Positions 2,622 to 40,006 of a stretch of DNA of 42,716 bases are shown piece after piece (position 1 is the stretch's first letter; each line of letters starts with the position of its first letter). The stretch is from the sequence record PZ386962.1; one strand, written 5' to 3'. A program made the position numbers and the translations under genes. The notes beneath the pieces are model-generated. The model was not told where the DNA came from. It saw nothing but the letters and a program-made list of their open reading frames with translations, and did not search any database. Source of the DNA: a phage.

Positions 2622-3110
2622 ATGAAACTGTCTCGGCTAATGGCCGGGGCAGTCCTCTCATTGTCACTGACATTGACGGGCTGCTCCGCAACTAGCGCAC
2701 TGTCTGCTGTAACTTCGGCTGTCTCTCCCAACAAGCCGGAACTCACGGCCCAAGTCGGTGCAGAGAACACGAAGCAAGGTATCGGTGTGACTGCGAAACA
2801 GTCCGACGAAACAAAGGTCGGTGACGTATCAGGTAACGCGAAAGTGGATACCGCTAAACAGGGTTCGAATGGCACTTCCGTCAAGGACGTTACAGGAGGC
2901 TCTGTAAACGCTTCTAAGCAGGGGTCGCAAATGACCCAAGGAAACGTACAGGCTCGCACAGTAATCGTCTCACAGAGCGACCCACGCAGTCTCCTGTGGG
3001 CTTTTGGCATGGGCCTTACATGTATCCTTGGTTTAGTCATGTGGTTTGTACCATCTCCGTGGAAAAGGAAAGTGAAAGATGACGGAAGCAAAGAAGGAGC
3101 CAACTCCTAA
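2622..3110 (+). CDS. unimolecular spanin-like outer-membrane lipoprotein with C-terminal transmembrane segment
   Basis: N-terminal signal peptide with lipobox LTGC (MKLSRLMAGAVLSLSLTLTGC), Ser/Thr/Lys-rich periplasmic region with repeated AKQG/SKQG units, C-terminal hydrophobic helix LLWAFGMGLTCILGLVMWFVP; AAGGAG RBS; lies immediately upstream of the holin candidate and endolysin. Confidence 0.55.
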   Translation: MKLSRLMAGAVLSLSLTLTGCSATSALSAVTSAVSPNKPELTAQVGAENTKQGIGVTAKQSDETKVGDVSGNAKVDTAKQGSNGTSVKDVTGGSVNASKQGSQMTQGNVQARTVIVSQSDPRSLLWAFGMGLTCILGLVMWFVPSPWKRKVKDDGSKEGANS

Positions 3111-3462: not shown

Positions 3463-3998
3463 TGACTAACTTTGAAATCTGTATGCGGTTCACCGGGCTG
3501 GCAGAAGGCGGTTACGCCAACCTGCCCGGCGACACCGGAGGGGAAACGAATCATGGAATTAGTGACGCTCGTGATGGAAAGCTGGATGGTAGAGCTTGCG
3601 GTGTCCCTACTGGGCTTGGCGGCACTATTTGTGTGCCTATCCGCGACCTCACCAAAGCGCAAGCCGAAGCAATCTATCGACGGGACTACTACAGCCCCAT
3701 CCGAGGTGACGAGCTTCACCCTGCGATTGCATGTGCCGTGTTCGACTACGGCGTTAACTCAGGTGTCTCCCGTGCGGCGAAAGCTCTACAGCGGGTATGC
3801 GGCGTTGCACAAGACGGGGTTATTGGCCCTGCTACCGTGGCAGCAGCCAAACGTCTGGAACCTCGCTCCGCAGCAGCAGCCATCTGTAACCTTCGTATTG
3901 CGTTCCTAAAGGCTTCTACAGCCCCAACAATCGTTCGGTATAGGGATGCCTTGGTAGCTCGTGCAAAACGCTGTAGCGCTTACTGTGCGACGCTGTAG
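3462..3998 (+). CDS. endolysin, GH108-like N-terminal domain with peptidoglycan-binding C-terminal domain
   Basis: EGGY motif near N-terminus (FTGLAEGGYANLPGD) as in GH108 family enzymes; DGxxGxxT-type motif (QDGVIGPATV) as in PG_binding_3 domains; no signal peptide, so holin-dependent. Confidence 0.7.
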   Translation: MTNFEICMRFTGLAEGGYANLPGDTGGETNHGISDARDGKLDGRACGVPTGLGGTICVPIRDLTKAQAEAIYRRDYYSPIRGDELHPAIACAVFDYGVNSGVSRAAKALQRVCGVAQDGVIGPATVAAAKRLEPRSAAAAICNLRIAFLKASTAPTIVRYRDALVARAKRCSAYCATL

Positions 3999-4200
3999 GG
4001 GTATCCGAAAGCTGAGGCAATGAACAGGCCGTGGGTGCAATACCCCGGCTTGAAAATTGACTATTTGTACGTGCCCCTCCCTCGACCCAAATGACCGCGC
4101 GTACCCCCATGACGTGTGCGCGGATTAGCCTCGCGACGTGCGCGATAATTGCTCGCGTGCGCTGCGCGGCGCGTCGAAAGGATTGCCTGCGTTCGGTATA

Positions 4201-4608
4201 GCTCGTGCGTGTCGCGTTTCATCGTCTGCCGTGTGGCGTGCTGTGCGCTGTCCTGCTGGCTGTGCTGTGTGCCTGCTGTGTGGGCTATCGGTGGCGGTGT
4301 GGTGCTGTCCTGTGGGGACGCTCTGCGCTGGCTGTGCGGTGCTGTGCGCTGCGCGTGGTCGTGCGGGTATCTGTCTCTTTTCGTCGTGGTGTGTGGTGCT
4401 GGTGTGTAGCGGTGTGCGGCGTGGTGCTGCCGTCCTGCTGTGTGGTGTGCTGGTCTACTGTCTGCGCCTGCCAGCTCTGCGCGTCGTACTCTGCTACCTG
4501 CTGTTACTGTCCTACTGCCTTCACTGTCTGCCGTCTGTCAGTCCTACGGTCTGCCATCCGTCATCCGTTCGGCGCTCGCTTGTTTCGGCTGCGCCGCGCT
4601 CGCTCTGC
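4201..4608. repeat. A-depleted GT/GC-rich compositional island with degenerate short repeats
   Basis: About 400 bp in which the + strand has only ~16 A by hand count; built from degenerate GCTGTG / CTGTGCGCTG / ACTGTCTGCC units; long ORFs in all three + frames are a composition artefact. Confidence 0.7.
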
Positions 4609-4617
4609 GTATCTAGC

Positions 4618-4635
4618 GATACTATATCACTATAG
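4618..4635 (+). promoter_or_regulatory. T7-like phage promoter core candidate (TCACTATAG) near presumed genome left end
   Basis: GATACTATATCACTATAG: last 9 nt identical to T7 class promoter -8 to +1 (TCACTATAG); reverse complement carries the ATGAAAGTGTCTATAG element also found at 25618. Confidence 0.3.
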
Positions 4636-4651
4636 ACACTTTCATAATTAT

Positions 4652-4672
4652 CTAATGATTACAGTAACTTAT
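4652..4672. repeat. 21-bp direct repeat copy 1 (CTAATGATTACAGTAACTTAT)
   Basis: Exact 21-mer repeated at 4731-4751 within an AT-rich stretch. Confidence 0.85.
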
Positions 4673-4730
4673 AACCTATCTGATAACGGTATTCTATCCA
4701 GTGTTAGGATTATCTAATCAAACTTTAATC

Positions 4731-4751
4731 CTAATGATTACAGTAACTTAT
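4731..4751. repeat. 21-bp direct repeat copy 2 (CTAATGATTACAGTAACTTAT)
   Basis: Exact copy of 4652-4672. Confidence 0.85.
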
Positions 4752-4772
4752 CACTTTTCTTGAAAATAATAC

Positions 4773-4801
4773 TTGCAAAGGTATTCGGTATTTGCTGTAA
4801 T
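4773..4801 (+). promoter_or_regulatory. sigma70-type early promoter candidate 1
   Basis: TTGCAA (-35) - 17 bp - TGcTGTAAT (extended -10). Confidence 0.5.
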
Positions 4802-4878
4802 TCATATCGCCGGACAACACAGCGTCAACGTGTTGGACGGTGTAGGACGGTAACACTGCTCTTTAACAATCTGGTGTG

Positions 4879-4907
4879 TTGACAAGGCAAGCTCACTATG
4901 CTGTAAT
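4879..4907 (+). promoter_or_regulatory. sigma70-type early promoter candidate 2
   Basis: TTGACA - 17 bp - TGcTGTAAT (extended -10 TGn). Confidence 0.6.
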
Positions 4908-5015
4908 GCTTCCACGTCAGCCAGCAAGCTAAACAGTCATTGATAAAGACGTTAAAACACACGTAGGCGAACTGGTACGGTTTAATTAACTCTGAAAGGG
5001 CGCTGATTAAAACGG

Positions 5016-5044
5016 TTGACAGGATGAAATGAGTATGCTGTAAT
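5016..5044 (+). promoter_or_regulatory. sigma70-type early promoter candidate 3
   Basis: TTGACA - 17 bp - TGcTGTAAT. Confidence 0.6.
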
Positions 5045-5095
5045 GCACACCAGATTGACAGGGCAGCAAGCCAGTCAGTCAGAAGTAAAAAGTAG

Positions 5096-5124
5096 TTGAC
5101 ACGCTGAATACGATGTGATGTAAT
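5096..5124 (+). promoter_or_regulatory. sigma70-type early promoter candidate 4
   Basis: TTGACA - 17 bp - TGaTGTAAT. Confidence 0.6.
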
Positions 5125-5556
5125 CAGCACCGAGTTGAAAGGTTGCAAAACAACCTGCTCTGAGTGAACGTAAACAGGCCACGTAGTGTCTCGGCCTCAT
5201 GGGTATCCGGCGCAGCTAGGAACTGGTGAGGGCACCGCCGAAAGGCAATAGGGGTAGCGCCCGGTGCGATGGGAACGGAGAAGCGCGATAGACGCAGCGC
5301 AGTATCAGCACAATCCCAAACGTCTTATAAGGCGCGGAGTGAAGCGGGTAGGTAGGCAAGCTGGTAACGGTGAGCCGGACTGCTGGAGGACTCCTGAGAG
5401 TGGATGCAGACAATATCCACGGCGCGAAATGGGCGGGGCGATTTTTCAGGGTAGTGAATCCGACAAGCCAATCAATGCCAACGAGTGCAGACTGTACGGC
5501 GCGTCACAATGGGTTCACTATCCACCTGAAAATAGCCAACAACTGGAGAAATTAAT

Positions 5557-5946
5557 ATGTACCGTATCTATGCAAGCGCATATCGTCAGGGCAACGCTGA
5601 GTCAGTCAATCTGGCGCTTCATTGCAAGGCACTGCGAACGGTGCAGGACATGTTCGGAGTGGTTCCGGTCACACTGACAGGCAAGTTCGACAATGCGTAT
5701 GAGTTAAGCATGGTCTTCCCTGTCGATGGAATCTACGAAATCCGACAGGCTGTTAAGCTGTTTTGTAAAGCCTTCGAACAGGACTGCATCATGGTAGTGA
5801 CCAAAGACGACGATGCAATCTTCATGGACTCACCGTATCCGGGTAAGCCTGCTGGCAAGCTGGTCAGCAAGACTAACGAGGAAATGGAAGCCGGGCAGCA
5901 TACCGCTTGGACTTACGATGGTGAGCAATTTTGGGTAGTGGAGTAA
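5557..5946 (+). CDS. hypothetical early protein
   Basis: 129-aa ORF, GGAGA RBS 6 nt upstream, first well-supported ORF downstream of the promoter cluster. Confidence 0.6.
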   Translation: MYRIYASAYRQGNAESVNLALHCKALRTVQDMFGVVPVTLTGKFDNAYELSMVFPVDGIYEIRQAVKLFCKAFEQDCIMVVTKDDDAIFMDSPYPGKPAGKLVSKTNEEMEAGQHTAWTYDGEQFWVVE

Positions 5947-6120
5947 GGAGCATGACTATGTTCACTGCACTGTGTGTTATTGCGGCGGCGTGTTGGGTTA
6001 TTGACCAGCGCCTGCCTAAGCGAGCCTGATATGTGGGACTTACTGGTAGCGTTATTCTGGTTCGTCTTTGCAGGCTTGTGGATTTACTGGCTGACTCGTC
6101 CCAAATTATGGTGACTGCCT

Positions 6121-6706: not shown

Positions 6707-6781
6707 GCGGGATTGACTCAAGCCAGTGTCAAGGCGCTGGCTTTATGGCAATTCTGCCCCAACCTATTCGGAGTATTACCC

Positions 6782-7134: not shown

Positions 7135-7476
7135 ATGAGCATCAAACTTGTAATCCTGACCAACATCGCAGCTTCCGCATTCGGCGCAGACGTACCGGAA
7201 GAAGCGCGTACTGCTGAGTGGGTGGCGTTCACCTCCGACGACGAGGGCTACCTGATTGCAGGCCGCAACCGCGACGGCGACTCTGCCGAGGACATCGTGG
7301 CGCACTTCGACGCTGACGAAGGCTTCGCTGGGTTCGCAGCTTCTGGCCTGCCGCTGGAACTGTTCGGCATGATGAACGGCGTGCCTTTCATCGACCGTGA
7401 GAAGCTGGGCGCAGACGTGTCTGTCACCGAGCTGAAAGTGTACGGCGAAGAAGATGACGTAGACTTCTCTGCGTGA
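7135..7476 (+). CDS. small acidic early protein (possible DNA-mimic-type anti-host protein)
   Basis: 113 aa, about 25 percent Asp+Glu by hand count with few basic residues; GAGGG RBS. Confidence 0.6.
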   Translation: MSIKLVILTNIAASAFGADVPEEARTAEWVAFTSDDEGYLIAGRNRDGDSAEDIVAHFDADEGFAGFAASGLPLELFGMMNGVPFIDREKLGADVSVTELKVYGEEDDVDFSA

Positions 7477-7483
7477 TACCTTA

Positions 7484-7505
7484 CTGCCTCGTTGCGACGG
7501 GGCAG
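7484..7505 (+). other. intergenic RNA stem-loop (8-bp stem, TTGCGA loop)
   Basis: CTGCCTCG-TTGCGA-CGGGGCAG followed by GGCAATCATGCC box. Confidence 0.5.
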
Positions 7506-7541
7506 TGCGGCAATCATGCCCCAATCTACTGAGGATTTATT

Positions 7542-8089: not shown

Positions 8090-8157
8090 TTTCTGTCAGC
8101 CCATCCATAGCGGTGGGCTGTAGGGCAATCATGCCACAACTAACTGAGGGTTTTACC

Positions 8158-10772: not shown

Positions 10773-10797
10773 ATGCCTGTTATTATTTAGCAGGCAT
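10773..10797 (+). other. stem-loop (7-bp stem ATGCCTG/CAGGCAT, AT-rich loop) at early/middle boundary
   Basis: Perfect 7-bp inverted repeat with 11-nt loop; no U-tract; followed immediately by the ATGAAGGTGTCTATA motif. Confidence 0.35.
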
Positions 10798-10835
10798 TAT
10801 GAAGGTGTCTATATTGGCCAACGTGAGGATGAAAT

Positions 10836-11039
10836 ATGTTCCGAGTTATATTGTTGTTCCTGTTCCTCGTTATTATTTGGGGAGCTTTATGGATGGCGCT
10901 GGCAGTGTTCGCACTGATACCAGCCATCGGTGAGTCGGCTACTTCTTCGGTGGGTACGCTGCTCGGTATGCTGGTAGGCTGGGGCTTGATGCACGTAAGC
11001 CTGAGCGTAGGTCAGAGCCGGAGGTGGATTAGATGGTAA
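10836..11039 (+). CDS. small membrane protein (2 predicted TMDs)
   Basis: 67 aa, hydrophobic segments VILLFLFLVIIWGALWMALAVFALIPAI and GTLLGMLVGWGLMHV; GAGGA RBS. Confidence 0.55.
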   Translation: MFRVILLFLFLVIIWGALWMALAVFALIPAIGESATSSVGTLLGMLVGWGLMHVSLSVGQSRRWIRW

Positions 11040-20278: not shown

Positions 20279-21402
20279 TGACCAAGTTAACTAATCACCA
20301 ACTCAAAGAAGACATTGCCGAAGGGCTTGGCACCAAGGCCATTGCTGAAAAGCACGACATGACCGAGAGCGCCATTCGATACCGGAAGCGCCAGCTTGCC
20401 AAGAGCGGCTGGAGTCCTGAGCACGACATGACGAAGGAGGTGCCGGAGCCGTACGCGGTGAAGGGTACGTCCACGCTGTACGATAAGGACGGCAACGTTG
20501 TCATGCAGTGGGTGAAGACAGCACTCGACCGTGAGCAGGAGCTGGCGCTGCTGCAAGAAGCTGTCGATGCGATTAGCGAGAGCATCACCCCGGAAGCTGC
20601 CCGACCGTACGCCGGGGGCGCGGCACCTGCCGAGCTGCTGAACCTGTTCGTGCTGACTGACTACCACCTCGGTATGCTGGCATGGGCAGAGGAAACTGGT
20701 GACGACTGGGATATGAAGATTGCGGAAGACCTGCTGGTCAAGTGGTTCTCGGCAGCGATTGCCAGTGCGCCGCCAGCACAGGTTGCCATCTTCGGCCAGC
20801 TCGGTGACTTCCTACACTGGGATGGGCTGGATGCAGTGACACCTTCGAGTGGGCATGTGCTGGATGCAGACACGCGATTCCAGAAGCTGGTGCGTGTGGC
20901 TATCCGGGCGCAGCGCCGCATCATTGGTATGCTGCTGGAGAAGTTCCCGCAGGTTCACGTAGTGTGTGCCGAGGGCAACCACGACATGGCCAGCTCCATC
21001 TGGATGCGTGAGCTGCTGCATGTCCTGTACGCTGACGAGCCGCGTGTCACCGTTGACCGCAGCCCCGACCCGTACTACTGCTATGAGCATGGCGAGACGG
21101 CACTGTTCTTCCACCATGGTCACAAGCGTAAGGCAGAACAACTGGAGACTATACTGGTCGCCAAGTTCCGCGAAGTGTATGGCCGAACCAAACATGCGTA
21201 TGCGCACGTTGGCCACCTGCATCACAAGAAGGTACTGGAGTCTGGTGTCATGGTCGTTGAGCAGCACCGTACGCTGGCAGCGAAGGATGCCTATGCCTCT
21301 CGTGGTGGTTGGCTGAGTGAGCGCAGCGCGAGCGTGATTACTTATCATGCCCGGTACGGTGAGGTCGCACGATTCACGATTAGCCCGGAGATGTTAGAGT
21401 GA
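20275..21402 (+). CDS. calcineurin-like metallophosphoesterase with N-terminal HTH
   Basis: Phosphoesterase motifs GDFLHWDG, EGNHDM, HHGH, GHLHH; N-terminal helix-turn-helix-like segment; AAGGGGA RBS. Confidence 0.6.
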   Translation: MMTKLTNHQLKEDIAEGLGTKAIAEKHDMTESAIRYRKRQLAKSGWSPEHDMTKEVPEPYAVKGTSTLYDKDGNVVMQWVKTALDREQELALLQEAVDAISESITPEAARPYAGGAAPAELLNLFVLTDYHLGMLAWAEETGDDWDMKIAEDLLVKWFSAAIASAPPAQVAIFGQLGDFLHWDGLDAVTPSSGHVLDADTRFQKLVRVAIRAQRRIIGMLLEKFPQVHVVCAEGNHDMASSIWMRELLHVLYADEPRVTVDRSPDPYYCYEHGETALFFHHGHKRKAEQLETILVAKFREVYGRTKHAYAHVGHLHHKKVLESGVMVVEQHRTLAAKDAYASRGGWLSERSASVITYHARYGEVARFTISPEMLE

Positions 21403-22092: not shown

Positions 22093-22663
22093 GAAGGGTA
22101 AGCAGTTTATCTTAGACCCGTCCCGTAACTGGGGTACTGGTACGCTACTGAGTGACATCGCAGAGCAGGGTATCATCCTGACGTACGACGAGCCGTACGA
22201 TGTACCGAACGACAGCCGTGACTACTACTCCTGCGTAAAGGACGGCAAGACTCACCTGCTTGTGCTGGAGCCGTACGAGGTGCTGGAGGTGGAGAAGTCG
22301 TTCATCCCGATTGACCCGTATGACCCGGCCAGTGATGTTGAGGTCGCAGTGGTTAAGGCTGCTGGGCCGGGCGGTATGAAGTTCGACGGTGACAAGCCTC
22401 GCATGGCTCTGCTGTTTGACGGCTGCCCGAATGCGCTGGAGGCTGTGGCCAGTGTGCTAACCTTCGGTGCTCAGAAGTACGCAGCTCACTCGTGGCAGAC
22501 TGTGCCGGAAGGTGAGGAACGTTACAAGTCAGCACTGCTTCGGCACCTGACCGCAGTGGGTAAGGGTGAGGAGACTGACCCGGAATCCAATCTGCACCAT
22601 CTGGCGCACGCTGCTTGCAATGCGCTGTTCATTCTGGAACTTGCTTTAAGGAAAACGAAATGA
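22085..22663 (+). CDS. conserved hypothetical protein (KFDGDKPR motif)
   Basis: 193 aa from ATG with GGAGA RBS; function not assignable from sequence. Confidence 0.5.
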   Translation: MSKKGKQFILDPSRNWGTGTLLSDIAEQGIILTYDEPYDVPNDSRDYYSCVKDGKTHLLVLEPYEVLEVEKSFIPIDPYDPASDVEVAVVKAAGPGGMKFDGDKPRMALLFDGCPNALEAVASVLTFGAQKYAAHSWQTVPEGEERYKSALLRHLTAVGKGEETDPESNLHHLAHAACNALFILELALRKTK

Positions 22664-23155: not shown

Positions 23156-25588
23156 GTGGACTTACTTGCTGAGCAGATTCGACTTGAAGAAGAAGCACGA
23201 GCCAGACACCGCGAGGGCTGGCTGGACAATATCAAAGAAGCCATGGCTAGTGGCCGGGCCGGGTCGGTGCCGTTGCTCCAGCGTATGATGGTAGAGGCGT
23301 ATCCTCTTGTCGAAGCTGCGATGCAAGAAACCCTGAACGAAACGACCCGTGGGTACGGTGCGCAGTACCGGACGTACATGCGTGAGATTGGCACCAAGGC
23401 GTGTGCCTCTCTTGCACTGAGCATGGCGGTGTCCGGTGCTGCGTCGGAGCAGGCGGTGCTGAGTCTGCTTAAGAGTATGGGTAAAGCGCTGATGGCTGAG
23501 GTGGTGTATCTCCGGGCGAAGCAGACCGGGCCACAGCAGGCAGCGTACATGGAGCGCGTGAAGCAGGACGTTAAGAAGTCCCGGTCGAAGTCAGCCAACC
23601 ACGTCTACAACAAAGCGCGTGCGTCGGCGGCGAACGTTGGGGTCGAGATTGATGTGCTGCCGCAGCGTGCTCTGATTACCATTGGCAAGCTGATGATGAA
23701 ATGCGTGGAGCCAACTGGGTTGGTGGCTACGATTCGCGTCGGCGGCAACCAACGTCAGCGCGGTACGGCACACTTCGCACTGCATGAGGATGTGCTGGCT
23801 ACGATGAACGACTGGCTGGACATGCCGCGTGCTGATGGCATGTGCTGCCCACCGTTGATTATCCCACCGAAGCAGATTGCACCGAACGGTCGCAGCGGTA
23901 TGTGGCACTCGGATGGGCAGGCGGCGATGTACCGGGTAATGAGTCGCATGAACCACAAAGGGTATCGTGCATTGAACGTTGACCCGACCCCTGTTATAGA
24001 GCCGTGTATGATGCTCAGCAGCGTTCCGTACCGAATTAACCCAATGGTACTGGAGTTCCTGAGAACGAACCGTACAGGCGTTATGGGGCTGCCTGTGCCG
24101 CCTCGTGAGCCTAAGCTCCCATTCACCATCCCGGCTGGTGTCAGCTTCGCGCAGTACATCAGCAAGTTCCCACCAGAGATGCAGCAGCAGATGGATGCCG
24201 AGGCTCATGAGTACAAGGTTAAGACTCGCTTGTATTACAATGAGTTGCGTAAGTTCACGTCGCAGATGCTGGCGCTGAATGGTGCAGTCAAAGAGGCAGA
24301 GCGCTATGCGCATTATGACCGGGTATACCTCCCGACCTACGCTGATACACGGGGCCGAATTTATTATTCTTCGACCCTTAACCCTCAGTCCATCGACGCA
24401 GTGCGAGCGCTGCTCGAACTTGCTGAACCAGTGGCTCTCGGAAGTGAGGGGTTATTCTGGCTCAAGGTACATGTTGCGAATTGCTTCGGCTACGACGCGA
24501 CAGACTTCGAAGACCGGGCGGCGTGGACGGACAAGACACTCCCCCGACTACGTGAGGCGTGCCGTCTTCCAGAGGCATTTGATTCGTTCTGGTCAGAGGC
24601 CGATAGCCCTATCAGCGCGTGGGCTGCATCTGTTGAACTCATTCGCGCTATCGACTCAGGAAATCCTGCGGCTTATCCCTGCCGAGTGGTTACACAATGG
24701 GACGCTACCTGTTCAGGATTACAGCACCTCAGTGCGATGTTACGAGATGAGGTTGGAGGTGCTGCTGTCAATCTTATCGACAGCGTGGGAAGAAAAGCAG
24801 ACATATATCTCAAGACGGCAGCAGCGGCGATGCAGGCTCTTGAAGAAAGTGAGGCAGCAGCGCCGACGCAAATGGGTACGTGGCTTGTTAGCATCGGCAT
24901 CGTTCGGGCTATGGCCAAGAAGCCAGTGATGACCTACGTGTACGGGGCAACCCGGCATGGTATGGTTGATTACTACTGCCTGTATCTGCGTGAGAACCGG
25001 GTCAAGCTGCCGGACGGCAAGAGCCTGCTGGAGTGTGCGCAGTTCATCGCAGAGTTCATGTGGAACGCTATCCCTCGCGTTGTGCCGAAGGCGGCTGAGC
25101 TGATGGCATGGTTGCAGGCTATCGCAGTTGAGGCGGCAGCCAACGGCGAGTACGTGGAAATCATCGCACCGTCAGGGTTGCGGGTGGTTAACCTGTACCA
25201 AGCCAGTAAGGAGACGATGCTCAACAACATCAACCTCATGGGTATCCACAGCATTAAGCTGCGTGAGTATCTGGACAAGCCGGACAGCCGGAAGTGTGCT
25301 GCTGCGATTGCTCCGAATTTCGTACACGCTATGGATGCCAGCCACATGATGAAGGTGCTGTGGGAGATGTGGAACAACGGGGTGTACATGGTATCCATCC
25401 ATGACTCGTTCGGTGTTGCGGCGGCACATGCTGGTCTGCTGCATAAGGTCATTCGTGAAAAGTTCGTACAGATGTATGAGCAACATGACCCAATTCAACA
25501 GCTTGCGGTAAGATACAATGCTGTTCCACCTGAGCGGGGCAATCTGGACATCCAGCTTGTGAAACAATCAAGCAAGTTTTTCTGCTGA
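23156..25588 (+). CDS. single-subunit DNA-dependent RNA polymerase (T7 RNAP family)
   Basis: Motif A-like DATCSGLQHLSAML, motif B-like KKPVMTYVYGAT, motif C HDSFG; 810 aa; GTG start with AAGGAG RBS; sits directly upstream of the structural genes as in phiKMV-like phages. Confidence 0.9.
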   Translation: MDLLAEQIRLEEEARARHREGWLDNIKEAMASGRAGSVPLLQRMMVEAYPLVEAAMQETLNETTRGYGAQYRTYMREIGTKACASLALSMAVSGAASEQAVLSLLKSMGKALMAEVVYLRAKQTGPQQAAYMERVKQDVKKSRSKSANHVYNKARASAANVGVEIDVLPQRALITIGKLMMKCVEPTGLVATIRVGGNQRQRGTAHFALHEDVLATMNDWLDMPRADGMCCPPLIIPPKQIAPNGRSGMWHSDGQAAMYRVMSRMNHKGYRALNVDPTPVIEPCMMLSSVPYRINPMVLEFLRTNRTGVMGLPVPPREPKLPFTIPAGVSFAQYISKFPPEMQQQMDAEAHEYKVKTRLYYNELRKFTSQMLALNGAVKEAERYAHYDRVYLPTYADTRGRIYYSSTLNPQSIDAVRALLELAEPVALGSEGLFWLKVHVANCFGYDATDFEDRAAWTDKTLPRLREACRLPEAFDSFWSEADSPISAWAASVELIRAIDSGNPAAYPCRVVTQWDATCSGLQHLSAMLRDEVGGAAVNLIDSVGRKADIYLKTAAAAMQALEESEAAAPTQMGTWLVSIGIVRAMAKKPVMTYVYGATRHGMVDYYCLYLRENRVKLPDGKSLLECAQFIAEFMWNAIPRVVPKAAELMAWLQAIAVEAAANGEYVEIIAPSGLRVVNLYQASKETMLNNINLMGIHSIKLREYLDKPDSRKCAAAIAPNFVHAMDASHMMKVLWEMWNNGVYMVSIHDSFGVAAAHAGLLHKVIREKFVQMYEQHDPIQQLAVRYNAVPPERGNLDIQLVKQSSKFFC

Positions 25589-25613
25589 TAAATAGTGATA
25601 TGTATCATTGACT

Positions 25614-25633
25614 TATATGAAAGTGTCTATAGT
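25614..25633 (+). promoter_or_regulatory. candidate phage RNAP promoter upstream of late genes
   Basis: TTATATGAAAGTGTCTATAG: AT-rich upstream part, TATA then G at presumed +1; 22-nt match to reverse complement of 4624-4645; ATGAARGTGTCTA core also at 10799 and 25906. Confidence 0.3.
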
Positions 25634-25699
25634 GATATGTATCACGCTACCGGTAGCCCCGTCAGTGGCGGGGGTTACTGCCACTAAGAGAGGATTGTA

Positions 25700-25891
25700 A
25701 TGGGTAAAGAATCTCCATTAGAAAGAGTATCGTTCACTAAAGCTCAGTTAGCTCTACTGGAAAAACACTTCGGAACTTGGGCGGCAGTAGGTAAGACTGT
25801 AACCCCTGATACCAACCTGCCACTGATTAACAGAGAAGCTGGTAAACAAGATGTTATCGACTTCATCCGTGAACGTGTCATCGGACTGTAG
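25700..25891 (+). CDS. hypothetical protein
   Basis: 63-aa ORF, AGAGAGGA RBS. Confidence 0.55.
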   Translation: MGKESPLERVSFTKAQLALLEKHFGTWAAVGKTVTPDTNLPLINREAGKQDVIDFIRERVIGL

Positions 25892-25905
25892 GGAGAGTTG
25901 TCGGT

Positions 25906-26325
25906 ATGAAAGTGTCTACTATGGGAAATACATCACACACGACAATGCCACTCGACATTCGCCGTGCTGTGGCCGAGGGCATCCAAGCCGAGCGGCCATG
26001 GTCAGACTTATCTCCCGATGTGATTGTTGACAGCATGTACGAGGCCACCGCCTCCGGTTGTGTTGACGTTTACATCACTGACGATGACAACAGCCTCATG
26101 GCCGTTGCACACATCGGCAGGTTATTCGATATTCATGTGGGCGAGATGGTGGTCGTTATGGCCTCATACGTCTGGCCCCCGTACAGAAACCGTGGAGTGA
26201 TGCGTGCCATCCTCCGTGTACTCAAAGACGTGGCCCGTTCAGAGGGTGTGCGTTGGTGCGGTTACTCCCATATGGTGCGGCCTTACGTTCAGGAGTACCG
26301 CTTCATTGATTTGGAGAAACCGTAA
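25906..26325 (+). CDS. hypothetical protein (weak GNAT-like motif)
   Basis: 139-aa ORF, GGGAGAG RBS; RNRGVMRAIL resembles acetyl-CoA binding motif of GNAT enzymes, weak. Confidence 0.5.
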   Translation: MKVSTMGNTSHTTMPLDIRRAVAEGIQAERPWSDLSPDVIVDSMYEATASGCVDVYITDDDNSLMAVAHIGRLFDIHVGEMVVVMASYVWPPYRNRGVMRAILRVLKDVARSEGVRWCGYSHMVRPYVQEYRFIDLEKP

Positions 26326-33459: not shown

Positions 33460-34200
33460 ATGGGTTGGGCAGCTTTTGCTAAAGCTGGTGCCGACGCTAC
33501 GAACTCCTTCATCACCACCTATGCTCAAGGACGAGCAGAGCGTGCGCAGATGAAGGCGGTTCAGGCAGAGAACGAACGCCTGAACAAGCAAACGTGGCAG
33601 GCAATGGGCCAGCGCATCAACACCGTGAATCTCCAGCGCGGCCTGCTCCGGCAGCAGACTGGCACCGACCTGTACAATATCAACAAGGAAGCTAACCGGG
33701 CATCCGGCGCGAGCATTAACAATGCCGCCGCTGCCGGGATTGAAGGTGCCTCTGTGGACGAGGCGGTCACGGACATCAGCCGCCAGAATCAGGAAAGCCA
33801 AGCGCAGACCCGGTTCAATGAGCAGATTCAGGAGATGAACCTCGACACCAGTATCAACGACATCATCGACACCGCCGTCGCAGCTCAGCGTTATTCGCAG
33901 AAGCCAGCGAGCAACAGCATGATTGTGGGCCGCGCCATTGGCGTGTCTGCTATGCAGTTTGCTTCGAGCCTCGCGCAGACCAGCTTCGACTACATGCCGA
34001 CTGAGGGTGCGAAGGGTACGGGTACACAGAGCGGCAGTGCTGGCGCTACAGCGTCAACGTTCGATAACCTCGGCTCCAGTACAGCGAGTTATGGAACAAC
34101 TAACTGGATGCAGAAGGCTGGGGAATTTAACCCTGTGCCTGCGCAGTATCAATCAAATCGTTACATGGGCTACGGCTCAGGTTCAATCTTTGGGGGCTAA
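33460..34200 (+). CDS. internal virion protein (gp13/gp14-like)
   Basis: 246 aa from ATG with GGAGA RBS; position within internal core protein block. Confidence 0.55.
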   Translation: MGWAAFAKAGADATNSFITTYAQGRAERAQMKAVQAENERLNKQTWQAMGQRINTVNLQRGLLRQQTGTDLYNINKEANRASGASINNAAAAGIEGASVDEAVTDISRQNQESQAQTRFNEQIQEMNLDTSINDIIDTAVAAQRYSQKPASNSMIVGRAIGVSAMQFASSLAQTSFDYMPTEGAKGTGTQSGSAGATASTFDNLGSSTASYGTTNWMQKAGEFNPVPAQYQSNRYMGYGSGSIFGG

Positions 34201-34202
34201 TC

Positions 34203-36899
34203 ATGGCTACTATGCGTGACCAGCGTGGCGCTAACCTTAATGCTGCGCAGCAGGGATTACCAAGTGTGCAGCAGGCGCAGACTCCGTTTAGTCTCGCAGG
34301 CCGCGATACTCGCATCGACACGTTTCCTACCGAGTCCATTCAACGCGTACTGAACATGGCCAGCGCACTTGCTGGCCGTGTCACTGAGCGTGTGAACGAG
34401 GAAGAATACCTCAAGGGGGCTAACGCCGCCGCGAGTGGCAAGGCTGTCGAGGATTTGGATTCGAACTGGCTTACCGCTCAGTTCCAGAAAGCTGGTTACA
34501 ACGACCAGTACAAACGAATGGAAATGGCGAAGGTCGCCTCAGACATCTCGGCTAACATGCCGCAGTATGCGAAGATGGCACCCGACGAGTTCTTGAAGGT
34601 GGTGGACGAGAAGACCACTGGCCTGTTCGAGAACACTGATGGTATGACGCTGAACGGGCGTAAGTCACTGCTGGAGAACCAGCTCACGTTCAGCAACACC
34701 CTTATCCGTACGCAGGCTGCCCAGCATGGTAAGTATCTGGTTGAGCAGCGTGCGGCGATGTACAACACGCAGGGTAACACTCTAGTTACTCTGGCGGCTC
34801 AGGCCAAGGCCACTGGCGATGGCGGCGCGTACGCTAACGCTACGGCAGCAACCATGGCATGGGCCAAGTCTATTCTGGCAGACGACAAGCTGCCACTGGA
34901 GACTCGCCGGACGCAGGTGACTTCCATGATGGGGCTGATGCTCCAGCAGGATTTGCGTACCCCGGTCGAGACTGCTGTGAACTCCGGGCTATTCAACGAG
35001 CTGCCTGCCGACGATTTGGCCAAGCTGCAAGGTCAGATTCGTGAATCCAAATCTCGTACTGAGGTTCAGGATAACATGGGTCTGCTGGCGCAGAAGGGTC
35101 AACTTGATGCGCGTCAGGCAGTATTCGGTGACGTTACGCCGGAACAGTACACGCAGACGCTCCAGCAGATGGTGGACAATAAGCTGATTAGCGCTGGTGG
35201 TTTCAGCTCTGCTATCGAGTCCTTCTACAAGGATTACGCCAAGCAAGCCAAGGCCAGCCAGCTCGGTCAGGCTTACGCCACCGGGAACCAGACGTACATG
35301 CTCCAGCAGGGCGCGAGTGAGCAGGATGGTGCTGACGCATTCATCAAGGCTCGCATGAAGCAACCGGGCGCGACGGCAAGTTCCGTGGCGTTCGACCTGC
35401 TGCAAGTGGGTGCGCAGACTGGCTTCCCTTCTGCGTACAAGTCTGCTGCCAAGTTGATTGAACCATCCCTGTCGAACTTCGGCACCGTGGATGAAATGAA
35501 CCCTGACGCTGCCCGTACCGTAACCGGGCTGATTGACCGTGTAACCGTGGCCGAGAATCAGGGTGACAAGACTGCATGGACTAAGCTCCTGTCCGGTCTG
35601 TCAGAAGAAAACCAAGAGAAGATGGTGTACATGCGCGAGCAGATTAAGGCTGGCCGCACCATCGACCAAGCTGGTCAGGGTTACATCAAGCAGCAGCAGG
35701 ACTACGCTGGCTTGACCCCGGCACAGAAATCTCAAATCCTCACGCAGCGTCAATCTGACGTTAACTCTGTGGTGAATGGGCTGGAGGCTCAGGGCTTCCT
35801 CTCTCGCACTTGGCAGGGTCTGGCTGGTCTGTTCTCAGATACTCAGCAGAACCTGTTCCAAGCACGCGTCGCATCTGGTGACATTACTGCCGCGCAGGAA
35901 ATGTCGGAGGTGTCTGCCGCGTACCGCGAGGAGCTGCAAGCTGTAGTCCTCAAGAACCCGAACGTGACGAAGGATGGTATGGAAGCACTCGCATCTGCGA
36001 AGCTGGCCAACCGTGTCCTGCGCGTCGGTGAAACCACATTCAGCCCCGGCTCTGTGCTTATCGCACCGAGAGGCCAAACTGTTCAGTCTATGCTCGGCTT
36101 GCCTGCTGACGTAGCCCCCGACCGTATCGGTCGCGCTATCGCCGCACTTGACCAGACCAAGGCACCAGAAGGCTTCGAGTCGTCCTACTCGTTTATGCCA
36201 GATGGCTCTCTGAACGTTCAGTTCTTCAACAAGCAAGGTGACGTTTCCCCGAACTCGGTACGCATTCTGCCGCAGCTCGTGCAGGAACGCATCCGTGAAG
36301 ACGACCGTGCAGCAGCCACTGCCAACAACGAAGTGTATGGCGACGGGAAACTCTTTGTTGATAAGACCAGTAACGTGGGTATCCGCGTGAATGGCGTTAA
36401 TACTGCGGGGGTAGACGAGCAGCGTATGCTTGTTGCCCGTGGCAAACTGATTGACTTCGAAGGTATCCGCAGCACCACCTACCGCGACAGCACTGGCGTA
36501 CAGACTAACGGTGTCGGTATCTCCGACCGTAGCCCGTACTTTGCCCAAGGCCAAGCGTCTGGTATGAAAGGCGGTACTGAGTGGTCGCCGCGAACTATCC
36601 ACGATACGTTCGTGCAACACACCAACATGGTAGCCCGGCAGATGCCCGGCACTGCTGCTGCACTGGGGTGGAGTCGTGATAACGATGCCCAGTTCCAGTT
36701 CATGATGCAGATGGGTTATCAGGCAGGTTCAAGCTGGTATCGTACCGATGGTGCGTACAGCAAACTGGCTGATGCAATCCGTGTTGGCGACCAAGAGAAA
36801 GCTGTGCAGGCTCTGGCTGCGACCCCGGCTTATAAGCTGTCGCAGGACGAGCGTAAGCAGTATTACGTCCAAACTCTACTCGCAGGTATGCAGGAATGA
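34203..36899 (+). CDS. internal virion (core) protein B (gp15-like)
   Basis: 898 aa, large mostly alpha-helical-looking protein between tail tube genes and tailspike. Confidence 0.65.
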   Translation: MATMRDQRGANLNAAQQGLPSVQQAQTPFSLAGRDTRIDTFPTESIQRVLNMASALAGRVTERVNEEEYLKGANAAASGKAVEDLDSNWLTAQFQKAGYNDQYKRMEMAKVASDISANMPQYAKMAPDEFLKVVDEKTTGLFENTDGMTLNGRKSLLENQLTFSNTLIRTQAAQHGKYLVEQRAAMYNTQGNTLVTLAAQAKATGDGGAYANATAATMAWAKSILADDKLPLETRRTQVTSMMGLMLQQDLRTPVETAVNSGLFNELPADDLAKLQGQIRESKSRTEVQDNMGLLAQKGQLDARQAVFGDVTPEQYTQTLQQMVDNKLISAGGFSSAIESFYKDYAKQAKASQLGQAYATGNQTYMLQQGASEQDGADAFIKARMKQPGATASSVAFDLLQVGAQTGFPSAYKSAAKLIEPSLSNFGTVDEMNPDAARTVTGLIDRVTVAENQGDKTAWTKLLSGLSEENQEKMVYMREQIKAGRTIDQAGQGYIKQQQDYAGLTPAQKSQILTQRQSDVNSVVNGLEAQGFLSRTWQGLAGLFSDTQQNLFQARVASGDITAAQEMSEVSAAYREELQAVVLKNPNVTKDGMEALASAKLANRVLRVGETTFSPGSVLIAPRGQTVQSMLGLPADVAPDRIGRAIAALDQTKAPEGFESSYSFMPDGSLNVQFFNKQGDVSPNSVRILPQLVQERIREDDRAAATANNEVYGDGKLFVDKTSNVGIRVNGVNTAGVDEQRMLVARGKLIDFEGIRSTTYRDSTGVQTNGVGISDRSPYFAQGQASGMKGGTEWSPRTIHDTFVQHTNMVARQMPGTAAALGWSRDNDAQFQFMMQMGYQAGSSWYRTDGAYSKLADAIRVGDQEKAVQALAATPAYKLSQDERKQYYVQTLLAGMQE

Positions 36900-39800
36900 T
36901 TATCACACAAGAATCGCTCGACAAGTTCATGGCTCCCAAGCAGGGGGCCAACGCTCCCTCGCTGGTTATTCCAGCTCCCGTAAAGACTGCTGACCTCAGC
37001 ACTCCACTGCAAGATGCCACTCGTCAGGGTGCCGTCGAGCAGTTCGACAAGATGCAGGAACTGGAAGCAACTCCGATGGCCACGGCGTTGAGTGCTTCTG
37101 TGAAGAACTGGGACACCACCCAGCTCTTTGATGCCGCGTTCAACAAGCCCACCTTCCAAGCTGACCCGGACTTCAAGCCCAACGAGGCATTGCAGAACGT
37201 ACAGTTCCCGGTGGGTGCAGATGACCGGACGTTCCTGTTCAAATCCAAATCCATGGACGAGTTCAACTGGCGTACCCAGCAGCTCCAAGAGATGCGAGAA
37301 CGTACCCAGTTGGCTCACACTGCGCCAGTGATGAACGCAGTGCTGCAATTCGCTGACCCGCTGTACCTTGCTACTGACCTGCTCTCGATGGGAGCAGGCA
37401 CTGCCCTGAAACTTGGTCGCCTTGGAACCGCTGCCGTAGGCGCGGCGTCCACTGCTACGCTGATGAACACCATCGGTAGCGAGGCTCGCCCAGTATCTCA
37501 GAACGAGATTATCTTTGCGGCTGCCCTGCACGGGGCGGCCACCACTGCATTCTATCGCCCCGCCGCTGCGCCAGCCCGTCGCCTTGATGAGCTGTCGCCA
37601 GAGGAATTTGCGGCTGAGATGCAGCGCCGTAACGGTATTGACCCGAACAACCCGCCGCAGTTTGACCCGAACAACGCCATGTCTCCGCTGGCAATGTCCC
37701 TCGGTGTCGGCCCTCGCGGTGCCACTGTAGTTGACGAAGTACCGGAATCCATTCGGGCTGCGGCTCAGCGTGGACTCGACCTCGCACGCCGTGGTGAGCA
37801 GACCAACCCTAAGCGTCCATTCCTTGAGTGGTCACTGTTCAAGTCGTTCAGTCAGCATTCTGAGGAATCCAGTGCGTTGGCCGGGCGACTGCTGGACGAC
37901 CCACTGAACCCGAACATGACCTCTGCTGCTGCAATCCAGCGCGAGACTCAGGCTCGCTTCGGTGTGCTGCTGAACCAGTATGAAGACACCCTGCGCCATG
38001 CCCTGACCACTGATGGCTGGAGTAACATCCGGCGCTTCCGTGACCCGGTTGGCTATCGCCGGGCGCAGCAGGAGTTCGAAGCTGCTGTTCGTCTTGAGCT
38101 GGACAAGCGCATGATTGACAACAACTTCCGTGGCGCTAACCCGAGTGTGGCCGCTGCCGCCGACCGACTGGGCGAATACTCTCGCGCCGTGGGCCGGGAG
38201 CTGGAACGCAAGGGGATGGTTGAGCCGGGCTTCGTGGAGAAGAACCCGTACTACTACCCTCGCCGGATGAACGTGACCAAGGTTGAGCAGGCTGAGCAGT
38301 TGCTCGGCAAGAAGCCATTCATGAAGCAGATGACGACTGCTGTGCAGCGCGGTATCGGTACTGACCGTCCGACTGCCAACGTCATTGCCCATGCTATGGT
38401 GGAGCGTGCCCGCCGCAAAGGTTACGGTATCGACAACTCCGGTACGATTATCAACAAGGAGGGCCGCGATGAGCTGCTCGAAATCATTGAGAACTCGAAA
38501 GGACTCGACGAGGCTGCCAAGGCCCGTGCTTCCGCACTCCTTCGTGAATCTGGCTCGGACGCTGGCCGACCGTCGATGCTTAAGAGCCGTATCAACATCG
38601 ACATGATGCACCAGCTCGGCCCTAACTTGCAGGTGCGTGACCTGTTCGATGACAGCATCACCAGTATGATGGACAGCTACAACCGCCGCATTACTGGGCG
38701 ACTGGCTCTGCATGAGGCTGGACTGGGTACTGACGCCGAACGCGCTGCTGCTCGTGAGGCTCTGGCCAAATCCATCAAGGATGGTACGGCTCGTCGTCAG
38801 GCGCTGGGGCAGTATGACAACATCATGGCTTATTACCAAGGTGCGCCAGTTGGTGAGGAAATGCCGCAGTTCATGCGTCAGCTCTCTGCACTGACTCAGG
38901 CTACTGGTCTGGCTGCATCTGGTCTGTGGCAGTTGGTGGAATACGGCACGATGATGCAACGTTTCGGGGCAGTCAATACGTTTCGCGCCATGATGCGTAC
39001 AATTCCCGAAGCACGCGCACTATTTAAGCAAATGAGGGTGTCTACTAAGGAAGGTCGTCAGTTGGCACTTGATGCCGAGGAAGCTCTGACTGCGGCGGTT
39101 GCGAGTGATATTCGTATGCGCCCAATCATGCAGCACTATGAAGATATGTTCTCTGCGGATAAGTCACCGTGGGTTATGCGTCTTGAGCACGCCCGTGATG
39201 CTACCATGTTCATCAACATGCAGAAATACATCCACTTCCACCAGACCCGTACCAACGCTGCGCTCGTGATGCAGACTCTGCGTAAGGCTGCCGAAGGTGA
39301 CGCCAAGGCTATTGCCGCGATGAAAACCTATGGTGCCAATGAGCAGCTTCTGAACGACATTCGCAAGCAGGTCGGGCAGCATGGCACCAAGCCAGACGCT
39401 TGGGACGAGGGCGTGTTCAACCGCTCCCGTATTGTCATGATGAATGCCATGGATGACGCCATTGTTCGCGCCCGTGTGGGTGAGCTGCCTGCGTTTGCAG
39501 AGTTCAGCACGCTCGGTAAGTTCCTGTTTACGTTCCGTCGATTCGTAGCGGCTACGCACAACAAGACACTGGTGGGTACGTGGAATCGTGAAGGTGCTCG
39601 CGGAATGGCTACGCTCATGGCGTATCAGTATCCGCTGGCGATGATGGCCACCGCAGCCAACAACGTGATTTCTGGCAAGGCTTTCTCCGACCCGGAAACC
39701 ATGGCACCAAATAAGCTGGCTGGGCAGGCACTGAACTATCTTGGTGCTATCGGCTTTGCCTCCGAGTTCACTGGTGTCCTGACCGGGCAGCAGCGTAGCT

Positions 39801-40006
39801 TCGGTGCGCCGGGCCTGTTGTTCCTCGACCGTGCCTACGGCGTGGCAGGTGCAGCTACCAATGCTGCTGGCGGTGTGTTGACTGGGGATGCTGACCAAGC
39901 CATCTCCGGTGCTCGCAAGGCGGCGGGTAACGTCATCCAAGCAATCCCACTCATCTCCATTGTGCCGGGCGTCCGAGCACTCAACGAAGCAGTTAAGGGT
40001 GAATAA
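36896..40006 (+). CDS. internal virion (core / ejectosome) protein C (gp16-like)
   Basis: 1036 aa, last large gene before tail fiber, ATG overlaps upstream stop. Confidence 0.65.
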   Translation: MIITQESLDKFMAPKQGANAPSLVIPAPVKTADLSTPLQDATRQGAVEQFDKMQELEATPMATALSASVKNWDTTQLFDAAFNKPTFQADPDFKPNEALQNVQFPVGADDRTFLFKSKSMDEFNWRTQQLQEMRERTQLAHTAPVMNAVLQFADPLYLATDLLSMGAGTALKLGRLGTAAVGAASTATLMNTIGSEARPVSQNEIIFAAALHGAATTAFYRPAAAPARRLDELSPEEFAAEMQRRNGIDPNNPPQFDPNNAMSPLAMSLGVGPRGATVVDEVPESIRAAAQRGLDLARRGEQTNPKRPFLEWSLFKSFSQHSEESSALAGRLLDDPLNPNMTSAAAIQRETQARFGVLLNQYEDTLRHALTTDGWSNIRRFRDPVGYRRAQQEFEAAVRLELDKRMIDNNFRGANPSVAAAADRLGEYSRAVGRELERKGMVEPGFVEKNPYYYPRRMNVTKVEQAEQLLGKKPFMKQMTTAVQRGIGTDRPTANVIAHAMVERARRKGYGIDNSGTIINKEGRDELLEIIENSKGLDEAAKARASALLRESGSDAGRPSMLKSRINIDMMHQLGPNLQVRDLFDDSITSMMDSYNRRITGRLALHEAGLGTDAERAAAREALAKSIKDGTARRQALGQYDNIMAYYQGAPVGEEMPQFMRQLSALTQATGLAASGLWQLVEYGTMMQRFGAVNTFRAMMRTIPEARALFKQMRVSTKEGRQLALDAEEALTAAVASDIRMRPIMQHYEDMFSADKSPWVMRLEHARDATMFINMQKYIHFHQTRTNAALVMQTLRKAAEGDAKAIAAMKTYGANEQLLNDIRKQVGQHGTKPDAWDEGVFNRSRIVMMNAMDDAIVRARVGELPAFAEFSTLGKFLFTFRRFVAATHNKTLVGTWNREGARGMATLMAYQYPLAMMATAANNVISGKAFSDPETMAPNKLAGQALNYLGAIGFASEFTGVLTGQQRSFGAPGLLFLDRAYGVAGAATNAAGGVLTGDADQAISGARKAAGNVIQAIPLISIVPGVRALNEAVKGE

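Follow-up and report, generated by a model that had tools for sequence, protein, structure and literature searches.

The element near the left end of the genome is most probably a promoter of the phage's own single-subunit RNA polymerase, a reading to which we assign a probability of about 0.85. Five copies of it are present in the window, that is, in the entire 42,716-nucleotide stretch of DNA analysed here, and they are referred to as L, M, P, Q and R from left to right. In the proposed scheme, the replication-gene block would be started from M, and the late genes from P and Q, which closely follow the polymerase gene. R would boost the tailspike, terminase and lysis genes from within the internal virion protein gene. 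L, in contrast to the other four, would fire leftward, away from the genes and across an A-depleted island to the terminal repeat, giving a non-coding, U-poor RNA. A sequence-only reading of this DNA had proposed a promoter-type element served by the single-subunit polymerase of the phage, and the five sites, their concerted cores, the variation of a polymerase loop and the homology of the layout all argue for that proposal. The layout is already known experimentally in a related phage, and the finding is real but ordinary: elements of this sort belong to the normal regulatory equipment of T7-like phages.

The window is a complete Bonnellvirus genome, that of a J8-65-like podovirus of Escherichia coli and other enterobacteria, belonging to the Autographiviridae and of the phiKMV type. 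In the regions tested, altidsur and LF82-23 are 93–98% identical to it. All genes of the window are on the + strand, and their layout is phiKMV-type, with the RNA polymerase gene closing the DNA-metabolism block and the structural genes directly after it. The genome ends fall in a non-coding stretch of 1.5 kb (3999–5556); homology to J8-65 puts the left physical end near 4082 and predicts a terminal repeat of approximately 259 bp. The same stretch contains the A-depleted island, the L element, an AT-rich segment and four tandem host-type promoters of the form TTGACA-N17-TGTAAT, which precede the first early gene, encoding a SAM lyase. A consensus promoter and terminator scan of 3900–5600 returned no match and is uninformative, because the TTGACA-N17-TGTAAT elements carry a G at position 2 of the −10 element. 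In Rfam, the whole window had no match at the gathering threshold, and 4000–5700 had none at E ≤ 1.

The + strand at 4618–4635 reads GATACTATATCACTATAG, and its last nine nucleotides, TCACTATAG (4627–4635), are identical to the end of the T7 promoter, as had been noted from the sequence; the T7 promoter is quoted as TAATACGACTCACTATA (PMC6834552). The 22-mer ATGAAAGTGTCTATAGTGATAT occurs exactly twice in the window, at 4624–4645 (− strand) and at 25617–25638 (+ strand), and no such pair is expected by chance (100 shuffles). The inverted 22-nt match reported earlier is real, but its right-hand copy had been placed one nucleotide off, at 25618–25639, and the full perfect match comprises 23 nt (4624–4646 and 25616–25638), making it the longest perfect repeat in the window. 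The 13-nt core had also been reported at 10799–10811 and 25906–25918; both copies are present, and a fifth at 39032–39044 (ATGAGGGTGTCTA), with one mismatch, had been missed. A search with the 13-mer gave 6 matches against 1.16 expected. A position-weight scan retrieved exactly five sites, scoring between 24.9 and 32.2 bits, with the next best position at 9.8 bits and the best score among 20 shuffled genomes at 15.0 bits. Because of this gap between the five sites and the background, the motif is neither a product of chance nor abundant at random positions. The latter had been named as grounds for abandoning the promoter proposal, and the counts go the other way, with five sites only and CTATAG present in 2 copies in 42.7 kb against 4.6 expected, both copies lying inside the 23-nt elements.

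The conserved unit of the five copies is ATGARRGTGTCTAnnnnG (tATGARRGTGTCTAnnnnGG with its flanks), rather than the T7-like TCACTATAG. Site L (4628–4646, − strand) and site P (25616–25634, + strand) both read T-ATGAAAGTGTCTATAGT-G and score 32.2 bits each. The remaining three, all on the + strand, are M (10798–10816; T-ATGAAGGTGTCTATATT-G; 31.0 bits), Q (25905–25923; T-ATGAAAGTGTCTACTAT-G; 31.4 bits) and R (39031–39049; A-ATGAGGGTGTCTACTAA-G; 24.9 bits). M, P, Q and R are carried by the gene strand and lie ahead of gene blocks, with L as the exception. M is located between a strong hairpin and a Shine–Dalgarno sequence approximately 20 nt away, which serves the gene that opens the replication block (ATG at 10836). 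P begins 28 nt past the stop codon of the RNA polymerase gene and lies approximately 65 nt ahead of the first late gene (ATG at 25700). At Q, the ATG of the motif doubles as the start codon for a GNAT acetyltransferase (25906–26325), and R is in frame within the internal virion protein gene (36896–40006), with the tailspike, terminase and lysis genes downstream. L is directed leftward, with the A-depleted island and the terminal-repeat region ahead of it and the host promoters on its other side.

Two other assignments for these sites were considered and rejected. Small open reading frames beginning at the motif ATG (27 amino acids ending in TAATG at P, 7 amino acids at L) have no ribosome-binding site, and the use of the ATG at Q and R is due to their coding location only. 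A sigma-70 promoter overlapping P (TTGACT with TATAGT or TAGTGA) has the wrong spacing, 14 nt, and its hexamer is unconserved in glasur and J8-65. Initiation at Q would take place inside a gene, and the Q transcript would be without a Shine–Dalgarno sequence until the next gene.

The comparison set comprised 13 genomes, namely 12 Bonnellvirus genomes and LIMEzero, a member of the nearest other genus, Waewaevirus, whose RNA polymerase is 70.5% identical. The motif is present at the same five homologous positions in all 13, save for a degenerate R in J8-65 (ATGCGAGCATCTACAGTG). L is on the minus strand in every genome, in agreement with the earlier claim of an inverted left-end copy. Each genome possesses one core at all of its sites, and four clade types are distinguished: GTGTCTA in the window clade; GTGACTA in glasur, forsur and ROV85 (clade 2); GTAWCTG in J8-65 and, for the most part, in Lidtsur, where Q has GTGACTG; and GCAAGCA or GCAATCA in LIMEzero. 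Since the core changes in concert at all sites, one sequence-specific reader must serve all five. A look-alike at 2622 (ATGAAACTGTCTC, at the start of the spanin gene) is constant across the clades and provides an internal negative control. At Q and R, the codons track the DNA motif and not the protein, with serine TCT in Bonnellvirus, serine AGC in LIMEzero and threonine ACT in clade 2. J8-65 and the window are 94–100% identical over approximately 4800–5950, an exchanged early module, and about 150 bp to the left of this module the L site of J8-65 still has the J8-65-type core. L thus travels with the polymerase lineage and not with its neighbours.

Which strand is read had been left ambiguous in the sequence-only reading, and the comparative evidence favours the second of its two options, that of rightward middle and late promoters with a leftward one across the A-depleted island. 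The part conserved everywhere among the 13 genomes is the block ATGARRG-xxxxx-, followed by a G four or five bases on. By comparison, TCACTATAG and CTATAG are confined to the P and L sites of the two closest clades. The functional orientation would run from ATGAA to G, which means leftward for L and rightward for the other four sites, because the T7-like alternative puts the conserved block in the transcript and lets the recognition region vary, contrary to the usual behaviour of such promoters, and points M, P, Q and R against the genes. That alternative, in which a T7-type promoter on the + strand (4618–4635) fires rightward like T7 phi-OL and the copy at 25617–25638 fires leftward into the polymerase gene, has in its favour the nine-nucleotide identity with the end of the T7 promoter, and at the left end of KP34 there is indeed a rightward promoter active in vitro (475–490, +). 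However, the homologous sites in J8-65, Lidtsur and LIMEzero, although themselves conserved, contain neither TCACTATAG nor CTATAG, and M, Q and R are entirely without CTATAG. The match to the T7 promoter proper (TAATACGACTCACTATAG) covers only −8 to +1 of the span from −17 to +1 and is on the strand opposite the conserved block, so that the block would be transcribed sequence downstream of +1, with −17 to −9 unconserved; P, M, Q and R would all oppose every gene; and the polymerase is only approximately 25% identical to T7 RNAP. A phi-OL-like rightward promoter is accordingly very unlikely, and the resemblance to the T7 core, on which it was based, did not hold across the relatives.

The palindromic 'core' is instead a clade-specific by-product of the start-site surroundings and not the recognition element, the CTATAG and TCACTATAG appearance arising from a palindromic extension at P and L. 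At P, the palindrome GTGATA-TG-TATCAC (25632–25645, + strand) overlaps the start region, and its counterpart at L is 4616–4630 (− strand). Across genomes, the arms are kept and the centre varies (TG, GA, AGA or TAG). A second copy, of ATAGTGATATGTATCA, is found at P (25592–25607, + strand), 37 bp upstream; it is present in the window clade and ROV85, and missing in glasur and forsur. As RNA, the P palindrome would form a 5-bp hairpin at the 5′ terminus, with folding z-scores of only −1.6 for the P leader and +0.5 for L. The palindrome GTGATAnnTATCAC may represent a 5′ hairpin or an operator. On the operator view, which would add to the promoter model, the extra identity restricted to P and L (ATAGTGATAT.., the palindrome and the duplicated 25592–25607) would bind a dimeric regulator of both promoters. 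The conserved arms around a variable centre and the second copy upstream of P are consistent with this, as are the different palindromes that occupy the same place elsewhere, GGTATACC in J8-65 and Lidtsur and GATATAGATATC in LIMEzero. Against it stand the loss of the upstream copy in glasur and forsur and the lack of a candidate regulator, and the L version of the palindrome contains a G-U pair, which suits RNA pairing, although the weak folding z-score establishes neither view. We regard an operator as doubtful.

The single-subunit T7-like RNA polymerase is encoded at 23156–25588 (+ strand). The protein comprises 810 residues (phmmer E = 1e-57 with T7 RNAP structures), carries an RNA polymerase annotation in all relatives and shows about 25–28% identity to the T7 and K1-5 RNAPs. 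Alignment to T7 RNAP, which rests on approximately 25% identity, places the equivalent of the specificity loop at about residues 684–703. In variability, this stretch falls in the top 5% of 17-residue windows (rank 38 of 793). Its clade types are KETMLNNINLMGIHS, KEIALNNINLMGIHG, KETTM-GIKLMGVHA and RETSM-RLNLLGVHA, four loops with four promoter cores, a correspondence that is qualitative. Between clades 1 and 2, 3 of approximately 24 loop residues differ against 8% for the whole protein, which is not significant alone, and the parallel between loop and core is clear only once J8-65, Lidtsur and LIMEzero are included. The equivalent of the AT-rich loop, TRGYGAQYR, is conserved, like the ATGAA part of the motif.

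These features make the phage polymerase the most likely reader of the five sites, and we infer that transcription from them depends on it. Position 18 of the motif is a G at nearly all sites of the 13 genomes, the exceptions being P and L of Lidtsur, so that the upstream element has 17 bp, as in T7. The recognition unit would comprise approximately 17 bp, ATGARRGTGTCTAyww(w), followed by the G as the likely start. For L, the predicted start is G4628 (or G4630), and at both P and L a start at G16 instead is possible. If the enzyme works as T7 RNAP does, its N-terminal AT-rich recognition loop would grip the conserved A/T-rich 5′ part, ATGAA, and its specificity loop would recognise the middle block, TGTCT, which varies with the clade; the last four bases, also A/T-rich, would be melted.

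Promoters at homologous positions have been mapped in two phages of the same layout. In KP34 (Drulisvirus), a strong promoter, T(A/G)ATGTTACAGGAGTA, was defined by in vitro transcription and 5′-RACE, with copies at the left end (475–490), right behind the polymerase gene (22197–22212) and at 33721–33736 (PMC6834552). The last of these lies within the gene for an 'internal virion protein with endolysin domain', a homologue of the gene that contains R. As in the window, the KP34 motif starts with T-ATG and is followed by G, but it differs in its core sequence and in the length from ATG to the start. The left-end copy of KP34 is on the gene strand (475–490, +), whereas L of the window is inverted, and the orientation of this promoter therefore differs between the lineages. 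Drulisvirus-type phages of Klebsiella and Enterobacter possess the closest RNA polymerases outside Bonnellvirus and LIMEzero, at approximately 32–34% identity. A second, weak class of promoter lies inside the polymerase gene of KP34 (PMC6834552). A cautionary observation from the same phage is that its sole long repeated motif, a predicted promoter, failed in vitro (PMC6834552).

In the Pseudomonas phage LUZ19 (Phikmvvirus), four phage promoters, P001 and P007–P009, were mapped by ONT-cappable-seq: two are directly behind the polymerase gene, one is in the structural region, and P001 is antisense at the left end, an arrangement conserved in 15 other Phikmvvirus species (PMC10914365). In the LUZ19 sequence, we find the P001 motif at 748 (−), with the terminal repeat (1–472) on one side and the sigma-70 promoters (from 913) on the other. 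Like the window, LUZ19 has few copies of a motif of approximately 20 bp ending in GG, and the + strand to the left of P001 is A-depleted, with a leftward RNA of 5–6% U. The LUZ19 motif, GgtTATGTCACacACAnnGG, is unrelated to tATGARRGTGTCTAnnnnGG save for the TATG start and the GG end, and the one phiKMV-like phage of Pseudomonas aeruginosa among the matches listed has a polymerase only approximately 31% identical to that of the window. LUZ19 is without a counterpart of M before the replication genes, so that M is extra in the window, and its starts were measured, whereas those of the window are predicted. Taken together, the counterparts of L, P (with Q) and R are 475, 22197 and 33721 in KP34 and P001 (also antisense), P007/P008 and P009 in LUZ19, respectively, as expected of a phiKMV-type layout. 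Since the window motif differs in sequence from both the KP34 and the LUZ19 promoters, the parallel rests on position and not on sequence.

Closer to the window, two sites in the LIMEzero record (FR751545) were annotated by its authors on the gene strand as 'putative phage specific promoter', and they are the homologues of M (7294–7313) and P (20330–20349). The M homologue comes after an annotated terminator and the P homologue right after the polymerase gene. The annotated sites are only two, and are predictions; Q (20740), R (33866) and the inverted L (656, minus strand) were found here. The LIMEzero core is GCAAGCA/GCAATCA, against GTGTCTA in the window.

The concerted change of the cores proves a shared reader only, and not its identity, and a different sequence-specific protein of the phage could in principle recognise the motif, for instance a nicking enzyme (phiKMV-like phages have localized single-strand interruptions) or a factor for replication or packaging. 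The nicks of phiKMV-like phages are associated with a few-copy consensus (PMC4411677), and KP34 provides the precedent that promoter calls based on repeats can err. We nevertheless judge such a protein to be quite unlikely, given that P and M are exactly at promoter positions, that the layout coincides with experimentally shown polymerase promoters of KP34 and LUZ19, that the motif is bipartite in the manner of T7 and ends in G, and that the specificity loop of the polymerase varies along with the core. The phiKMV nick consensus, CGACNNNNNCCTACTCCGG, is not enriched in the window, with 3 matches (3 mismatches) against 3.4 expected. The match between P and L has also been considered as chance or as a historical duplication, through gene conversion between two intergenic regions, that left L without function. 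Their perfect identity over 23 nt does suggest some sequence exchange between the two sites within clades 1 and 2. A functionless L nonetheless has next to no likelihood: L is kept, and always inverted, in 13 of 13 genomes of two genera, it follows each genome's own core even where its flanks are unrelated, and chance would yield no such match.

If L is a promoter of the phage polymerase, it would transcribe the region 4150–4627 on the minus strand, a strand without any gene there. The + strand of this region is A-depleted, with an AT skew down to −0.89, and the predicted leftward RNA is consequently U-poor, purine-rich at first and then C/A-rich: it contains 7% U and 69% purine from +25 to +175, and 2% U and 43% C from +175 to +425. 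Over 400 nt, the predicted RNA has 2–12% U in all 13 genomes. The most likely role of L would be to counteract late transcription that continues past the concatemer junction and enters the early region; for the LUZ19 antisense promoter, Putzeys et al. suggest a block on late transcription entering the early genes (PMC10914365).

More tentatively, and with a smaller share of the likelihood, the inverted left-end promoter and the A-depleted island may constitute one conserved functional module that goes beyond a roadblock. The phage polymerase would fire leftward into a template almost without A, and the nearly U-free RNA could hold neither a U-run nor termination signals of the AUCUGUU type. 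Unusually stable RNA:DNA hybrids would form. Through them, the terminal-repeat region could be opened or primed, either for replication or so that the repeat is duplicated and cut at concatemer junctions. The combination of an inverted promoter and an A-depleted island occurs with unrelated sequences in Bonnellvirus, LIMEzero and LUZ19, and in each case the promoter faces an A-depleted stretch beside the terminal repeat. An antisense left-end promoter is thus not peculiar to the genus of LUZ19, being found also in distant enterobacterial phages with a polymerase approximately 30% identical. The conservation of the inverted promoter argues for a real role of the leftward transcript, which is testable in E. 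coli.

No paper describing the promoters or termini of Bonnellvirus was found in the literature, and the main texts of PMC11475235 and PMC11880802 mention neither J8-65, LIMEzero nor Bonnellvirus. With cores that differ by clade and pair with variants of the polymerase loop, the five sites provide Bonnellvirus and Waewaevirus with a full and testable promoter map, and the natural polymerase–promoter pairs are useful as orthogonal expression parts. The T7 class III and phi-OL promoters and those of SP6 resemble the window sites in being served by the same kind of polymerase, through an upstream element of approximately 17 bp in which A/T-rich sequence precedes the starting G. The window also has in common with this group a left-end copy close to the terminal repeat, but T7 phi-OL fires rightward and L of the window leftward. 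The SP6 promoter is ATTTAGGTGACACTATAG, and AGGTGAC in the clade-2 core equals SP6 positions −13 to −7 when G18 is set as +1, a resemblance that serves as a lead only.

To the left of promoter L, the predicted phage-RNAP promoter on the minus strand at 4628-4646, A is strongly depleted on the + strand at 4150-4620, with an AT skew falling to -0.89, and the predicted leftward RNA is therefore poor in U. As computed from sequence, U accounts for only 2-12% of this RNA in all 13 genomes compared, which comprise the Bonnellvirus genomes and LIMEzero. Positions 1-700 of phage LUZ19, left of its mapped antisense promoter, are likewise A-depleted and would give a U-poor leftward RNA, although the island sequences of the two phages are unrelated. 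The GC skew changes sign within the island near 4450, with G exceeding C on the left side and C exceeding G on the right.

The sequence ATCTGTC followed by a T-rich run is present at 4369-4381 (+). It resembles the class II pause/termination signal of T7 RNAP (ATCTGTT with a U-tract), a signal found at the concatemer junction in T7. This signal is said to tolerate no mismatch; since the window sequence carries one, and the polymerase also differs from that of T7, its assignment as a class II-type pause/termination signal is only a lead. The counterpart in the Bonnellvirus phage J8-65, TATCTATCTTTTTT, occupies positions 271-284 of that genome, 12 nt to the right of the terminal repeat annotated there.

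Immediately behind promoter L, the AT-rich segment contains a 30-nt direct repeat beginning CTAATGATTACAGTAACTTAT, with copies at 4652-4681 and 4731-4760 (+) that are 90% identical and 79 bp apart. This repeat is kept in clade 1, to which the window belongs, and in clade 2, and it could represent iterons or an upstream element. Beyond it lie four tandem host-type promoters on the + strand (4773-4801, 4879-4907, 5016-5044 and 5096-5124), composed of TTGACA (or TTGCAA), a 17-nt spacer and TGTAAT, with TGC preceding three of the four. These promoters correspond to A1-A3 of T7 and were missed by a consensus scan because the -10 element has G at a position where A is normally invariant. Between these promoters and the SAM lyase gene is a non-coding leader of approximately 420 nt (5135-5556, +), the folding of which is more stable than that of 100 of 100 shuffled sequences (z = -3.2), and which has no match in Rfam. 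The early module as a whole (4800-5950) is 94-100% identical to J8-65, compared with approximately 74% identity between the genomes overall, which suggests that the module was exchanged recently and has a boundary near 4750-4800.

Further along the early region, an element of approximately 39 nt, GGGCnGTnnGGCAATCATGCCCCAA...CTGAGG, occurs in three copies (6738-6776, 7500-7538 and 8115-8153, +) positioned between small early genes. The copies could represent intergenic stem-loops, or else processing sites, each followed by a ribosome-binding site, and can be likened to the RNase III sites of the T7 early region. Directly upstream of promoter M, the predicted phage-RNAP promoter at 10798-10816, is a 10-bp hairpin (10773-10797, +; -14.1 kcal/mol, z = -5.3) with compensatory changes across clades (ATGCCTG/CAGGCAT, ATGCCAG/CTGGCAT and GTGGCAT/ATGCCAC). 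A terminator is annotated at this position in LIMEzero; the hairpin is probably the early-transcript terminator or a 3' stabiliser, although a clear U-run is lacking.

A resemblance to the promoter core, ATGAAACTGTCTC at 2622-2634 (+), coincides with the start of the spanin gene and is invariant in all clades; it was rejected as a promoter site and serves as a negative control for comparison of the cores. The 16-mer ATAGTGATATGTATCA, which occurs at predicted promoter P (25616-25634), has a second copy 37 bp upstream, at 25592-25607 (+), starting 4 nt beyond the stop codon of the RNAP gene. The window clade and ROV85 have this upstream copy, whereas glasur and forsur lack it. Rac, a predicted GNAT acetyltransferase of PhiKMV-like phages, is described as inactivating host transcription via cleavage of the RNAP alpha subunit (PMC7552054). 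In the window, the ATG of predicted promoter Q (25905-25923) is the start codon of a GNAT acetyltransferase gene (25906-26325, +), the product of which matches Pfam PF00583 with a score of 23.4 bits (cutoff 20.7).
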